64,000 nt of DNA from Escherichia coli (GTDB lineage Bacteria > Pseudomonadota > Gammaproteobacteria > Enterobacterales > Enterobacteriaceae): assembly GCF_003019035.1 (NCBI RefSeq), contig NZ_CP027447.1, one strand, 5' to 3'. The notes beneath the pieces were generated by a model. That model had not been told where the DNA came from and did no database searches. It was given only the letters and a program-made list of their open reading frames with translations. Positions 6,585 to 59,236 of this stretch are shown piece by piece (the first letter of the stretch is position 1; each line of letters starts with the position of its first letter). The position numbers were made by a program, and so were the translations under genes.

Positions 6585-7772
6585 ATGAACTTATCCCTAC
6601 GACGCTCTACCAGCGCCCTTCTTGCCTCGTCGTTGTTATTAACCATCGGACGCGGCGCTACGCTGCCGTTTATGACCATTTACTTGAGTCGCCAGTACAG
6701 CCTGAGTGTCGATCTAATCGGTTATGCGATGACAATTGCGCTCACTATTGGCGTCGTTTTTAGCCTCGGTTTTGGTATCCTGGCGGATAAGTTCGACAAG
6801 AAACGCTATATGTTACTGGCAATTACCGCCTTCGCTAGCGGTTTTATTGCCATTCCTTTAGTGAATAACGTGACGCTGGTGGTGCTCTTTTTTGCCCTTA
6901 TTAACTGCGCCTACTCCGTTTTTGCTACCGTGCTGAAAGCCTGGTTTGCCGACAATCTTTCCTCCACCAGCAAAACGAAAATCTTCTCAATCAACTACAC
7001 CATGCTCAACATTGGCTGGACCATCGGTCCGCCGCTCGGCACGCTGTTGGTGATGCAGAGCATCAATCTGCCCTTTTGGCTGGCAGCTATCTGTTCCGCG
7101 TTTCCCATGCTTTTCATTCAAATTTGGGTAAAGCGCAGCGAGAAAATCATCGCCACGGAAACAGGCAGTGCCTGGTCGCCGAAAGTTTTATTACAAGATA
7201 AAGCACTGTTGTGGTTTACCTGCTCTGGTTTTCTGGCTTCCTTTGTTAGCGGCGCATTTGCTTCATGCATTTCACAATATGTGATGGTGATTGCTGATGG
7301 GGATTTTGCCGAAAAGGTGGTCGCGGTTGTTCTTCCGGTGAATGCCGCCATGGTAGTTACGTTGCAATATTCCGTGGGCCGCCGCCTTAACCCGGCTAAC
7401 ATCCGCGCGCTGATGACAGCAGGCACCCTCTGTTTCGTCATCGGTCTGGTTGGTTTTATTTTTTCCGGCAACAGCCTGCTAATGTGGGGTATGTCAGCTG
7501 CGGTATTTACTGTCGGTGAAATCATTTATGCGCCGGGCGAGTATATGTTGATTGACCATATTGCGCCGCCAGGAATGAAAGCCAGCTATTTTTCCGCCCA
7601 GTCTTTAGGCTGGCTTGGTGCTGCGATTAACCCATTAGTGAGTGGCATAGTACTTACCAGTCTGCCGCCTTTCTCGCTGTTTATCATCTTAGCGTTGGTG
7701 ATCGTTGCTGCGTGGGTGCTGATGTTAAAAGGAATTCGTGCAAGACCGTGGGGGCAGCCCGCGCTTTGTTGA
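6585..7772 (+). CDS. ydeE: MFS transporter YdeE
   Basis: 395 aa, 12-TM MFS protein; sequence matches recalled E. coli YdeE. Confidence 0.9.
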   Translation: MNLSLRRSTSALLASSLLLTIGRGATLPFMTIYLSRQYSLSVDLIGYAMTIALTIGVVFSLGFGILADKFDKKRYMLLAITAFASGFIAIPLVNNVTLVVLFFALINCAYSVFATVLKAWFADNLSSTSKTKIFSINYTMLNIGWTIGPPLGTLLVMQSINLPFWLAAICSAFPMLFIQIWVKRSEKIIATETGSAWSPKVLLQDKALLWFTCSGFLASFVSGAFASCISQYVMVIADGDFAEKVVAVVLPVNAAMVVTLQYSVGRRLNPANIRALMTAGTLCFVIGLVGFIFSGNSLLMWGMSAAVFTVGEIIYAPGEYMLIDHIAPPGMKASYFSAQSLGWLGAAINPLVSGIVLTSLPPFSLFIILALVIVAAWVLMLKGIRARPWGQPALC

Positions 7773-7898
7773 TTTAAGTCGAACACAATAAAAATTTAAT
7801 TCAGCCTTCGTTTAGGTTACCTCTGCTAATATCTTTCTCATTGAGATGAAAATTAAGGTAAGCGAGGAAACACACCACACCATAAACGGAGGCAAATA

Positions 7899-7994
7899 AT
7901 GCTGGGTAATATGAATGTTTTTATGGCCGTACTGGGAATAATTTTATTTTCTGGGTTTCTGGCCGCGTATTTCAGCCACAAATGGGATGACTAA
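7899..7994 (+). CDS. mgtS: Small membrane protein MgtS (YneM), 31 aa
   Basis: Hand-translated ATG at 7899 after ggag SD: MLGNMNVFMAVLGIILFSGFLAAYFSHKWDD, stop TAA 7992-7994. Below the size cut-off of the ORF track. Confidence 0.75.
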   Translation: MLGNMNVFMAVLGIILFSGFLAAYFSHKWDD

Positions 7995-8024
7995 TGAACG
8001 GAGATAATCCCTCACCTAACCGGC

Positions 8025-8060
8025 CCCTTGTTACAGTTGTGTACAAGGGGCCTGATTTTT
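8025..8060 (+). terminator. Rho-independent terminator downstream of mgtS
   Basis: ccccttgt ... acaagggg stem followed by cctgattttt. Confidence 0.55.
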
Positions 8061-8065
8061 ATGAC

Positions 8066-8172
8066 GGCGAAAAAAAACCGCCAGTAAACCGGCGGTGAAT
8101 GCTTGCATGGATAGATTTGTGTTTTGCTTTTACGCTAACAGGCATTTTCCTGCACTGATAACGGATCGTTGA
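8066..8172 (-). ncRNA. mgrR: Candidate PhoP-regulated sRNA MgrR
   Basis: Minus-strand terminator hairpin ccgccggtttactggcgg plus a run of eight T (plus coords about 8066-8096) roughly 100 nt downstream of a PhoP-box-like direct repeat; location between mgtS and dgcZ agrees with where MgrR is reported. Ends are approximate. Confidence 0.5.
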
Positions 8173-8199
8173 CACAGTAGCATCAGTTTTCTCAATGAA

Positions 8200-8220
8200 T
8201 GTTAAACGGAGCTTAAACTC
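8200..8220 (-). promoter_or_regulatory. PhoP box-like direct repeat (AGTTTA-n5-CGTTTA) for mgrR
   Basis: Minus strand reads GAGTTTAAGCTCCGTTTAAC; hexamer repeats spaced 11 bp apart, overlapping the 3' end of dgcZ. Confidence 0.45.
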
Positions 8221-9103
8221 GGTGAATCACGTTTTGTTCGTCAATAAACATACAGCGATTTCTTCCGGTTTGCTTACCCTCATACATTGCCCGGTCCGCT
8301 CTTCCAATGACCACATCCAGAGGCTCTTCAGGAAATGCGCGACTCACACCAGCAGTCACGGTAATGTTGATATGCCCTTCAGAATGTGTGATGGCATGGT
8401 TATCGACTAACTGGCAAATTCTGACACCTGCACGACATGCTTCTTCATCATTAGCCGCTTTGACAATAATGATAAATTCTTCGCCACCGTAGCGATAAAC
8501 CGTTTCGTAATCGCGCGTCCAACTGGCTAAGTAAGTTGCCAGGGTGCGTAATACTACATCGCCGATAAAATGCCCGTAGGTATCATTAACCAATTTAAAT
8601 CGGTCAATATCCAACAACATTAAATAAAGATTCAGAGGATCAGCGTTGCGTAACTGATGATCAAAGGATTCATCAAGAACCCGACGCCCCGGCAATCCCG
8701 TCAGAACATCCATATTGCTACGGATCGTCAGCAAATAAATTTTGTAATCGGTTAATGCCGCAGTAAAAGAAAGCAACCCTTCCTGAAAAGCGTCGAAATG
8801 CGCGTCCTGCCAGTGATTTTCAACAATAGCCAGCATTAATTCCCGACCACAGTTATGCATATGTTGATGGGCAGAATCCATTAGCCGAACGTAAGGTAAT
8901 TCATCGTTATCGAGTGGCCCCAGATGATCAATCCACCGACCAAACTGGCACAGTCCATAAGAATGGTTATCCGTTATTTCTGGCTTACTGGCATCTCTCG
9001 CGACCACGCTGTGAAACATACTTACCAGCCACTGGTAGTGGGCATCGATAGCCTTATTGAGATTTAACAAGATGGCATCAATTTCCGTTGTCTTCTTGAT
9101 CAT
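8213..9103 (-). CDS. dgcZ: Zinc-regulated diguanylate cyclase DgcZ (YdeH), CZB sensor plus GGDEF
   Basis: Sequence from MIKKTTEIDAILLNLNKAIDAHYQW matches recalled DgcZ; RYGGEEF active-site motif present; 296 aa from the MIKKTT start. Confidence 0.9.
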   Translation of the reverse strand: MIKKTTEIDAILLNLNKAIDAHYQWLVSMFHSVVARDASKPEITDNHSYGLCQFGRWIDHLGPLDNDELPYVRLMDSAHQHMHNCGRELMLAIVENHWQDAHFDAFQEGLLSFTAALTDYKIYLLTIRSNMDVLTGLPGRRVLDESFDHQLRNADPLNLYLMLLDIDRFKLVNDTYGHFIGDVVLRTLATYLASWTRDYETVYRYGGEEFIIIVKAANDEEACRAGVRICQLVDNHAITHSEGHINITVTAGVSRAFPEEPLDVVIGRADRAMYEGKQTGRNRCMFIDEQNVIHRV

Positions 9104-43184: not shown

Positions 43185-43455
43185 GATGTTACCGTAGTAT
43201 GTGAGTATCCATCGAATAGACACCAAGCAAAAAAGCTCCCGAAGGAGCCTTCATTTTCACTTTTTTAAATCCAACGACAGACGGCTGGCATTTAAGTATT
43301 GTGAAATATTATCAAATGTAATCATCATTGATTTACAAAAGATACATTTTGCCCCGAAAGGATTCATGTCAGAAACATCAAAAGATGATGTTCTATACTG
43401 GGAACCATGACAACACGGGCATCTAAAGTGAATATGGTTTGTAATATTGTCTACC

Positions 43456-43668
43456 TCAAAGCGCCACTACATGAACAGCGGCAGGACCTTTAGGTCCGTT
43501 CTCAATACCAAATTCAACTTCCTGATTCTCAGTTAATGTTTTGAAATCGTTGCTCTGAATTGCTGAGAAATGGACAAACACATCTTTGCTGCCATCTTTC
43601 GGCGTGATGAAACCAAAACCTTTTTCAGGGTTAAACCATTTCACTAAACCAGTCATTTTGTTAGACAT
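43456..43668 (-). CDS. cspI: Cold shock protein CspI
   Basis: 70 aa CspA-family protein with RNP motifs KGFGFI and VFVHF; matches recalled CspI. Confidence 0.85.
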
Positions 43669-44030
43669 AATTATTACCTTTTGAAGAAATTAGCCCTTGG
43701 GCAGAATGGTCCGAAAAAAAATATCAGAGAGAAAAACCAACAAGGAAATCTCAAGAGGTACAAATAATAAAATTATAACAATGACTGCTTCAGATAAATT
43801 TGTAACAAACCAGAACACCATTAACGCATGATTAACCACCCATAGCAAGGATTACTTTTGTAAAGAAAAACACAGCAATGAAAGAATAGCTTTATTTATT
43901 AATAAAACGTGTCATTCTGATTAAGACCTTTTATCTTACCCTTAAGATTTCAGGAATTTTGGCTCATGGAAGAGTCCTTTTTATTTAAATTTTACATTCC
44001 GCGATGTAAATGTTCCGATTTAATATTACC

Positions 44031-46052: not shown

Positions 46053-46339
46053 GGGTTTGAGATTGTGGTGCTTTTTGTGGGAGTCATCCACTTACGCACT
46101 TTGTTTTGCCATGCCAGCAGTTAGCTTCTGCTGTAAAACTATTCATGCAGCAAACCTGCACTTCACCACAATGGTTAGCATACTTTTCCTGATTAAGATT
46201 TTGCCAAATATGCTAGCCATTGTTTCATGTATTGGACCTCCTTACTTTTTATTAAAGAGATCCAATATTCACTACTCTGTCCGTATCTCTACTCAGGCAT
46301 CAGCCTTCTTCGTTATCGTATACAGACGAGCGATGAATT

Positions 46340-46555
46340 TTAATCAGTAATGATGACATTTGCTGCTGCAGGACCTTTAGCACCACTCTCTATAGAGAAG
46401 GTAACCTTTTGACCTTCAAATAAGGTTCGATAATTATCATTCTGAATCGCAGAAAAATGCACAAACACATCTTTACTACCATCAACAGGAGAAATAAAGC
46501 CGAAACCTTTATCAGCGTTAAACCATTTTACTAAACCAGTCATTTTATTTGACAT
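46340..46555 (-). CDS. cspB: Cold shock protein CspB
   Basis: 71 aa CspA-family protein; matches recalled CspB. Confidence 0.85.
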
Positions 46556-46855
46556 TCTACATTCCTTAACTTGAGCCTTTCGGCATAAATGGTTTGCATA
46601 ACAGAAACGACTTCGTACTTAATTGGAGAGACTCAAAGAAGGAATAAGTGAATAACACCTGAAATGAGAACTGCTTTAGTAAACTACTTCGTATATCGTC
46701 TGTTCTTCAAACCGACGCAATCATTAACGCATAGTTGAACATATGAAGCAATGTTTATTTTAGACATCCAGCCATCTTCAACCCCATCAAAAAACTATAG
46801 CTTTCTTCAGGAACGTGTGTATAGTGCGCCAAGTTATCAGTATTAAGGAATTTTT

Positions 46856-51825: not shown

Positions 51826-53674
51826 AGTTAACATTACAAGATATAAGTAATGGACGCACTCCCAATTAGTCTATTTAAATCGCCACGAGTTTAACTGACA
51901 ACCCATGATCAATTATGAATTGCAACTATTTCTGTAGTCACTTTTGTGGGGACAGTCCACAAAACTGCCAACTTCCGCTTCTTGCTCTTAGCGGACATTA
52001 GCATAGGCTATTTACCATAACGCCTCATTACGCGCACCGCCCAGACTGACTCAGCGCGTTTCTGGCATATCCCCGGTAAAACAAGTAACAAACCACCCGA
52101 AAATGAACACCAGAAACGCGACTTAAGAATCTACCCTATGAATGGATATGCACTCAACCGAATCGATCTTGGTTTCAATCTTTTTTATCGGGATCAGGCT
52201 TCTTTTTAGGTAACTTCGGGGGCTTAACTTGCTGATGACTTTGCGTTCGGCGCGTAAGCCAGGGATGGTCAGCTTTAGGTTTAACATAGTATTTTGAGCG
52301 TAAATCAATACGGGCATTATCCACTCGTTCATGGACACTCTTTTCATCATCCAGTGGTATAGGCTCCGGGCCATCAACATACTTTTCCCAGCCCAGCGCT
52401 TTCCCGTCATACAGAACGTTAATTTCACCGTCAAAGTTCTCGCATACAGTAACAACCGAATGCCTAAGTCGATATCCCCGGCCCTCACTGCGTACCTGAA
52501 ACGCACTGCTTTTGTACTGGAAAGTGAGATTTTTAGACAGAACGCGCTTCGCCTGTAGGCTGAAGATATAACCCAGTTCCTCTTCAGAATGGTGCACATC
52601 AAGATGAGCATTATCAGTAGTACGAGGCGACGTAGCGAACCGGTTGTTATAGGCTTCAATAAAGGTCGGCAACCATGCATTTGCTGTTTCAATATCACTG
52701 ATATTCTGAAGCCGCATTTCTTTGACCAGCCTGTCCTGTAGTGTCTGATTGGCGCGCTCTACCCGCCCTTTTGCCTGCGGGCTGTTGGCATGGATTGGCT
52801 CGATGCCCAGTGTCTTTATCGCACGAGTGAACTGGGTCAGCTCACCTTCCCGCTCTGGGTTATTTACCCTGAATATACTGTGTCTATCAGAGTAGAGAGC
52901 GAGCGGTACGCCATGATCATTAAGGTAACCCCGGAGGGTTTCCATGTAAGCCCGGGTTGTTTCAGCAGGCACAAAACGCAACGCCATCAACGCACTGGTG
53001 GCATCATCAATGAAAACGATCAGTGTACATCTGGGGCCTCGATTTTCAAACCAGTCATGAGGTGAGCCATCAATCTGGATCAGTTCACCGTAAGATGGTC
53101 GTCGCATGCGGCGTTGATATATACGGGCAATTTTACGACGGCGTTCACGCCATAACCCCTCTTCTATCATCCACTTTCTGAGAGTTTCAACGGATAAAGA
53201 TAAACCGTGTATCTCGCGCAATTTTTCGCACGCAAACGTAGGTCCAAAATCAGCGTAACGGCCTTTGAGGAGTGAAATTACTGTTGCTCTGAATTCAGTA
53301 GAAAAGGAATTATTAGGACGCTTTCCACGTCGGTGGGAAACCAGACCAGAAGGCCCTTCATTTCTATACCGTTGCACCAGACGTTTAACCTGCCGAATAG
53401 AAATGCCAATGCGTGCCGCAGCTTGTTCCTGAATAATCTGAAGTCGGTGGAGTTCCTTATGACTCATCGTAACAGTCTCTTTGATCATGAAAAATCCCCC
53501 AGAGAATTGTCTGGGGACATTTTAGAATGGTTCAAAGGGGACATTACAGCTTGGTGTTAACAATAGCCTGCTTCTCCGTGCCTTTCGGCACGTAAGAGGC
53601 TAACCTACATGTGTCTAGCATGAAATTGGCCTCAGATTAATGTTAAGCGTCTTGCAGGACGCGTAATGTTAACT
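51826..53674. mobile_element. Insertion sequence (family uncertain, IS481/ISNCY-like); boundaries tentative
   Basis: Single 437 aa DDE transposase ORF flanked by a 12-bp perfect inverted repeat agttaacattac (51826-51837) / gtaatgttaact (53663-53674); no clear target-site duplication seen. Confidence 0.35.
52175..53488 (-). CDS. DDE transposase with N-terminal HTH and rve-type integrase core
   Basis: 437 aa; HTH near N-terminus (IGISIRQVKRLVQRY); catalytic-triad candidates in IQIDGS, YSDRHSIF and KGRVERANQTL. Confidence 0.8.
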   Translation of the reverse strand: MIKETVTMSHKELHRLQIIQEQAAARIGISIRQVKRLVQRYRNEGPSGLVSHRRGKRPNNSFSTEFRATVISLLKGRYADFGPTFACEKLREIHGLSLSVETLRKWMIEEGLWRERRRKIARIYQRRMRRPSYGELIQIDGSPHDWFENRGPRCTLIVFIDDATSALMALRFVPAETTRAYMETLRGYLNDHGVPLALYSDRHSIFRVNNPEREGELTQFTRAIKTLGIEPIHANSPQAKGRVERANQTLQDRLVKEMRLQNISDIETANAWLPTFIEAYNNRFATSPRTTDNAHLDVHHSEEELGYIFSLQAKRVLSKNLTFQYKSSAFQVRSEGRGYRLRHSVVTVCENFDGEINVLYDGKALGWEKYVDGPEPIPLDDEKSVHERVDNARIDLRSKYYVKPKADHPWLTRRTQSHQQVKPPKLPKKKPDPDKKD

Positions 53675-53822
53675 GGGGCTTTTCTCTATCTGCCGTTGGT
53701 GTCCATGCCCGAGGCAGATAGCCTCAAGCACCCGCAGTCATTCTACTTAACTAAGATTTCCCCGCAAACCGTTTTTGTCCAGCACAGTAAATATCCAACT
53801 AAACCAATGGAGTTCGCTGTAT

Positions 53823-59183: not shown

Positions 59184-59236
59184 TTTCTGGTGACGTTTGG
59201 CGGTATCAGTTTTACTCCGTGACTGCTCTGCCGCCC
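59184..59236 (+). ncRNA. dicF: DicF small RNA (ftsZ-targeting antisense sRNA)
   Basis: tttctggtgacgtttggcggtatcagttttactccgtgactgctctgccgccc followed by ttttt matches the 53-nt DicF sequence I recall. Confidence 0.85.

Follow-up and report, generated by a model that had tools for sequence, protein, structure and literature searches.

Which genes and control elements occupy positions 7899-8220 of the window, a stretch of 64,000 nt from Escherichia coli (contig NZ_CP027447.1), and which of the repeated elements next to the dgcZ stop codon would serve as the PhoP box of the small RNA encoded there? The original prediction, made from the letters of the DNA, had placed an intact 31-codon mgtS in this interval and, on the opposite strand, a PhoP-activated MgrR RNA whose box overlaps the end of dgcZ. 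We consider it very likely (probability about 0.93) that the interval is the known low-Mg2+, PhoP-controlled mgtS-mgtT / mgrR locus of E. coli, which consists of two convergent transcription units. The four genes mgtS, mgtT, mgrR and dgcZ are all already known and are present both in the reference annotation and in the literature, and no observation speaks against their identities. Over the 500 nt compared, the window differs from K-12 MG1655 by six substitutions and by no insertion or deletion; therefore, a constant offset of 1,614,747 suffices to carry the K-12 RefSeq annotation over, and the order and spacing of the four genes are the same as in that annotation. On the plus strand, ydeE ends at 7772 (mapped by the offset), mgtS (formerly yneM) extends from 7899 to 7994, and mgtT (b4775), identified as an ORF and from the RefSeq annotation, extends from 7994 to 8098. 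On the minus strand, mgrR (b4698, K-12 1622817-1622914) maps by the offset to a 98-nt non-coding RNA at 8070-8167, and dgcZ (formerly ydeH), which encodes a zinc-regulated diguanylate cyclase, extends over 8213-9103 with its TAA stop codon at 8215-8213. The dgcZ assignment is based on the ORF, the annotation and the NCBIfam equivalog NF007380, which the product matches over residues 1-296 of 296 with 518.8 bits (cut-off 256). The region from 7780 to 8260 is 100% identical to many complete E. coli genomes and is ordinary E. coli chromosome, and the locus was found in 5416 of 5426 complete genomes of the species. In the automatic record with an exact match to the window, mgtS, mgtT and dgcZ are listed and mgrR is missing, which bears out the original warning that genes here are easily missed by ORF-based annotation. 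The same gap is found in most automatically annotated E. coli records, in which mgtS, mgtT and dgcZ are listed; thus, a covariance-model pass is needed to annotate mgrR.

Comparison loci were collected by scanning genome contigs with an exact 19-mer of the MgrR seed, which returned 11 loci, and a Phytobacter locus and one further Citrobacter locus were added through members of the MgtS cluster. The exact 19-mer scan returned no Salmonella locus, and Salmonella is covered here only by the table of Sittka et al. 2008. One hit (L012), on a MAG labelled as coming from outside the Enterobacteriaceae, looks like a chance match to the 19-mer. Another (L003, SMXE01000224.1) is labelled 'MAG: Caldithrix sp.', and its ydeE is 98% identical, its mgtS and mgtT are 100% identical and its mgrR is as in E. 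coli, on a contig that ends just upstream of mgrR. Contamination of the metagenome bin with E. coli DNA almost certainly accounts for this contig.

On the plus strand, the ORF at 7899-7994 encodes the 31-residue MLGNMNVFMAVLGIILFSGFLAAYFSHKWDD, which is identical to MGTS_ECOLI at 31 of 31 residues and matches the NCBIfam equivalog NF033842 (small_MgtS) over residues 1-31 of 31 with 80.6 bits against a cut-off of 35, so the ORF is intact as originally described. Compared with the known MgtS (YneM; NF033842 / Pfam PF22865) there is no difference in the protein, and the gene carries a single synonymous change relative to K-12, at 7955. MgtS is an inner-membrane protein that guards the Mg2+ importer MgtA from degradation and acts on PitA. 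Its transcription has been published as PhoQ/PhoP-dependent, and mgtS and mgtT have been described as one operon that depends on PhoQP and is induced when Mg2+ is low. Upstream of the gene, a predicted PhoP box, AATTCA-GCCTT-CGTTTA, lies at 7798-7814 (+), and the -10 hexamer TAATAT follows after 12 nt at 7827-7832 (+). The upstream half-site AATTCA is weak and the downstream half-site CGTTTA is strong. In an alignment of 10 loci, the pattern xxTTxA-N5-(C/T)GTTTA is conserved, the distance to the -10 element is fixed at 12 nt, and a TAnnAT-type hexamer stands in the same column in most of the loci; the mgtS start site is a prediction from this sequence arrangement. This box and -10 element (7798-7832) had been overlooked in the original prediction. 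As for the neighbourhood of the two transcription units, mgrR and mgtS are about 6 kb apart in Klebsiella michiganensis (L011) and thus are not always neighbours, and mgtS was not found in the shorter loci of K. oxytoca and C. amalonaticus S646 (L005 and L007).

The second plus-strand gene, mgtT, which had also been overlooked, encodes 34 residues and starts with an ATG that shares bases with the stop codon of mgtS (TAATG). The mgtT stretch does not differ from K-12, and the product had no match among the NCBIfam models. An intrinsic terminator of mgtS lies at 8022-8060 (+), consisting of a 13-pair hairpin (8022-8052) followed by GAUUUUUAU. It was identified from the fold (-25.3 kcal/mol, z = -3.69), the alignment and the Rfam structure line, which pairs the same bases, and its hairpin arms are conserved across genera. 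Since this terminator sits inside the mgtT ORF, full translation of mgtT is possible only from read-through transcripts. In the Klebsiella michiganensis and Phytobacter loci (L011 and L014), the frame equivalent to mgtT meets a stop at codon 9 and the terminator hairpin is kept. Judging from the aligned sequences, conservation of mgtT seems confined to Escherichia and Citrobacter, and part of this apparent conservation may be due to the hairpin arms. Over its final 29 nt, mgtT runs antisense to the terminator of MgrR.

On the minus strand, the Rfam family RF01407 matches 8201-7988 with 281.9 bits (gathering score 55, E = 1.8e-64) over model positions 1-214, a strongly positive outcome for the covariance-model check that had been proposed for MgrR. 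No Rfam family is named MgrR; RF01407 is titled "STnc560 Hfq binding RNA", and since the annotated K-12 mgrR falls inside the match, STnc560 and MgrR are the same gene. The model is 214 nt long, more than twice the length of the RNA, and spans the core promoter, the sRNA, the mgtS terminator and the last mgtS codons; its match coordinates are therefore not usable as gene ends. The MgrR sRNA that had been suggested on this strand is thus borne out by the Rfam match together with the K-12 annotation, and the guessed transcript of about 8066-8172 falls within 5 nt of the mapped 8070-8167. Compared with K-12 MgrR (b4698; Moon & Gottesman 2009), the gene occupies the same position between mgtS/mgtT and dgcZ and has the same 98-nt length, seed, terminator and promoter, so that the window carries an allele of it. 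The sole difference in the RNA is at nucleotide 4 (8164), a C in place of the K-12 U, which in the predicted fold is unpaired and located just outside the 5' stem. In Salmonella, STnc560 is an RNA of about 90 nt, enriched 29-fold with Hfq and convergent with the yneM ORF (Sittka et al. 2008). The STnc560/STnc570 pair is flanked there by ydeI and ydeE, and the table of that study lists no dgcZ beside it, in contrast to the arrangement in the window.

The 98-nt RNA from G8167 to 8070 folds with -25.9 kcal/mol (z = -2.89). In this fold, a 5' stem-loop (nt 5-35, 8163-8133) is followed by a single-stranded A-rich stretch (nt 36-54), by the unpaired seed UAUCCAUGCAAGCA (nt 55-68, 8113-8100) and by a terminator hairpin (nt 72-91, 8096-8077) with a U8 tail (T8 in the DNA, ending at 8070). 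The terminator stem has eight pairs, of which six are G-C, and corresponds to the strong minus-strand terminator that had been noticed roughly 100 nt downstream of the repeat; between 7700 and 8400, two terminator-like sites were found against 0.6 expected. We aligned MgrR from 12 sequences (the window, K-12, two other Escherichia, five Citrobacter, two Klebsiella and one Phytobacter). In this alignment, 93.4% of the pair cells are paired and six pairs show compensatory double changes. In 500 column shuffles, neither the pairing nor the covariation score of the real alignment was attained once, and the pairing falls to 26-48% when the partners are slid by 1-3 columns. The seed is invariant in all 12 sequences, within an invariant block of 17 nt, AATCTATCCATGCAAGC, and its position agrees with the published numbering of the pairing region, U55-A68 (Kwiatkowska et al. 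2018). The best core duplex of MgrR with the start region of K-12 eptB uses nt 55-68 and lies across the eptB start codon. The energy of this duplex (-17.6 kcal/mol) is no better than that of shuffles, 144 of 1000 of which were equal or better, so only the position of the duplex is informative. The sequence also suggests the traits of a class II Hfq sRNA, namely a Rho-independent terminator with a U-tail and an A-rich, ARN-like region, as this class and motif were described by Kwiatkowska et al. 2018. According to published work, MgrR acts with Hfq to repress eptB, ygdQ, pitA and, in EPEC, several virulence mRNAs; the repression of eptB alters LPS modification, and deletion of mgrR results in about tenfold higher resistance to polymyxin B.

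These results bear directly on whether the repeat and the hairpin could be chance features of an intergenic spacer that holds no RNA gene. Nothing speaks for such a reading except the statistics of the motif by itself, which are weak. An exact GTTTA-N6-GTTTA occurs once in the 64-kb window against 0.14 expected, and shuffling produced one or more in 14 cases out of 100. With up to two mismatches allowed, KGTTTA-N5-KGTTTA has 20 matches against 16.9 expected in the window, which is chance frequency; therefore, the PhoP motif carries little weight by itself, and the argument depends on where it stands. The best degenerate match to the PhoP consensus, with one mismatch, is GGTTTACTGGCGGTTTT at 8074-8090 (-), where it falls on the MgrR terminator (loop and 3' arm), which shows how low the specificity of the motif is on its own. 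The reading of chance features is refuted by the Rfam match (E = 1.8e-64), the covariation, the invariant 17-nt seed block and the curated annotation, and we give it practically no credence.

The mgrR promoter was compared across 12 loci from Escherichia, Citrobacter, Klebsiella and Phytobacter. In the window, the -10 hexamer TACTGT (8179-8174, -) is followed by 6 nt (GTCAAC) and by the annotated +1 G at 8167. The predicted PhoP box that is conserved upstream of it, CGTTTA-ACATT-CATTGA, lies in direct orientation at 8208-8192 (-). In 12 of 12 loci from the four genera, CGTTTA-N5-CATTG(A/G) is followed after exactly 12 nt by TAnnnT, with 6-7 nt from there to the inferred start. Zwir et al. 2012 described an architecture I, in which one direct PhoP box stands 12 nt upstream of the -10 element (mgtA, phoP, slyB, pmrD), and an architecture III, in which 21-23 nt separate the box from the -10 element (rstA, ompX). 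The mgrR and mgtS promoters both fit the architecture I geometry and, like the promoters of that group, have no recognisable -35 element. They differ from the group in that each of their boxes has one good half-site (CGTTTA) and a degenerate partner (CATTGA at mgrR, AATTCA at mgtS), and mgrR differs further by an extra in-phase half-site upstream, in Escherichia. A sigma-70 consensus scan of 7700-8400 found no promoter; this null result does not count against the two promoters, since activator-dependent promoters without a -35 element are expected to escape such a scan. An alternative -10 element of mgrR, AAAACT (8190-8185), which would place the start at about 8178 and give a 109-nt RNA, was rejected: conservation of this hexamer does not extend beyond Escherichia, and a +1 at 8167 agrees with the 98-nt numbering of both the annotation and the published work. 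Transcriptional fusions of mgrR and of yneM (mgtS) fall when PhoP synthesis is repressed, and both genes have been described as directly PhoP-activated; this published PhoP dependence supports the activation of MgrR by PhoP that had been proposed for this locus.

The PhoP box named in the original prediction is a different pair of half-sites. The direct repeat AGTTTA-AGCTC-CGTTTA is indeed present at 8219-8203 (-) and does overlap the end of dgcZ, whose TAA (8215-8213) lies inside it; however, the conserved box is one half-site downstream, and it begins 4 nt beyond the stop codon, so that the two do not overlap. The two pairs share CGTTTA, and AGTTTA (8219-8214, -) forms a third in-phase half-site that overlaps the dgcZ codons GTT-TAA. 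Against the consensus (T/G)GTTTA-N5-(T/G)GTTTA, the conserved box agrees at 5/6 and 3/6 positions, and the overlapping pair at 5/6 and 5/6. If AGTTTA-N5-CGTTTA were the functional mgrR box of E. coli, either alone or together with the proximal pair, the box would stand two helical turns upstream of the -10 element and the binding of PhoP would overlap the end of dgcZ. This arrangement draws support from the exact repeat, the only one in 64 kb, from its two perfect GTTTA cores as opposed to a CATTGA that agrees at only 3/6 positions, from its distance of 23 nt to TACTGT, which is within the architecture III range and equals that at rstA and ompX, and from the conservation of AGTTTA in E. coli and E. 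whittamii. Nevertheless, AGTTTA is missing from all eight of the Citrobacter, Klebsiella and Phytobacter loci, in which the rest of the promoter is exactly kept. Among the four Escherichia loci it is intact in three (the window, K-12 and E. whittamii) and reads AGTTTT in the fourth (L004). Moreover, in the Escherichia loci dgcZ ends at this position, so the bases are constrained anyway as the Val and stop codons of dgcZ, and the chance frequency of the motif with mismatches allowed weakens the appeal to its rarity. We therefore regard this arrangement as unlikely. CGTTTA-N5-CATTGA is most probably the ancestral, functional mgrR PhoP box, as its conservation across the aligned loci suggests, and AGTTTA would be an Escherichia-specific extra, possibly a fortuitous one. 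The comparison across genera thus fixes the conserved pair of half-sites, which is useful for the design of promoter mutants and for PhoP-site scans. It is a distinctly doubtful further idea that the Val-stop codons of dgcZ give the Escherichia mgrR promoter a third half-site and, with it, a second, better-matching register one helical turn upstream (8219-8203). If this were true, PhoP could bind in either register or cooperatively over three half-sites, the Mg2+ threshold of MgrR induction could be shifted relative to other enterobacteria, and bound PhoP could block dgcZ read-through into mgrR. In the fourth Escherichia locus (L004, strain SCPM-O-B-8794), the dgcZ stop codon TAA is changed to TTA, and the ORF is seven codons longer (LAPFNIH), reading across the conserved PhoP box until it meets the TGA within the CATTGA half-site. 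In Citrobacter CP056473, a dgcZ homologue is also located upstream, with about 35 nt between its stop codon and the box.

The closeness of dgcZ also raises the question of whether Escherichia MgrR could mainly be a 3'UTR-derived RNA, released by processing or termination of read-through dgcZ mRNA. No terminator-like site was found on the minus strand from the dgcZ stop (8213) to the MgrR terminator, so dgcZ transcripts should run through mgrR. Such transcripts probably extend across mgrR and its promoter as far as the MgrR terminator, with the MgrR sequence contained in their 3'UTR. As the main source of MgrR, however, they are very improbable: the module of box, -10 element and +1 is conserved in species without an upstream dgcZ, published fusions that carry the promoter region only up to +10 are PhoP-responsive, and the annotated 5' end lies at the expected distance from the -10 element.

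Taken with the literature on the PhoQ/PhoP system, the preferred reading, a PhoP-controlled locus of two convergent units, suggests the following scheme. Its PhoP dependence, Hfq dependence and MgrR targets are taken from published work, and the gene identities, the MgrR structure with its covariation, the invariant seed and the conserved promoter geometry are observed in the sequences compared here. Low Mg2+, sensed by PhoQ, would lead to the phosphorylation of PhoP, as described in the literature. As the conserved geometry suggests, phosphorylated PhoP would then bind the direct-repeat box in place of a -35 element at both promoters, at 7798-7814 with the -10 element at 7827-7832 on the mgtS side and at 8208-8192 with the -10 element at 8179-8174 and +1 at 8167 on the mgrR side, and recruit RNA polymerase. 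The plus-strand mRNA would yield MgtS, which stabilises MgtA and acts on PitA, and would also carry the overlapping small ORF mgtT. On the opposite strand, the Hfq-dependent MgrR would pair through its seed (nt 55-68) with the eptB, ygdQ and pitA mRNAs and repress them, and this repression would change LPS modification and the handling of phosphate and Mg2+.

Elsewhere in the window, the Rfam search also matched two cspA-type thermoregulator leaders, a sok-type antitoxin RNA and DicF, at 43429-43814 (-), 46324-46716 (-), 53562-53733 (-) and 59185-59236 (+). Taken together, these four matches point to a Qin-like cryptic prophage in the window's second half.
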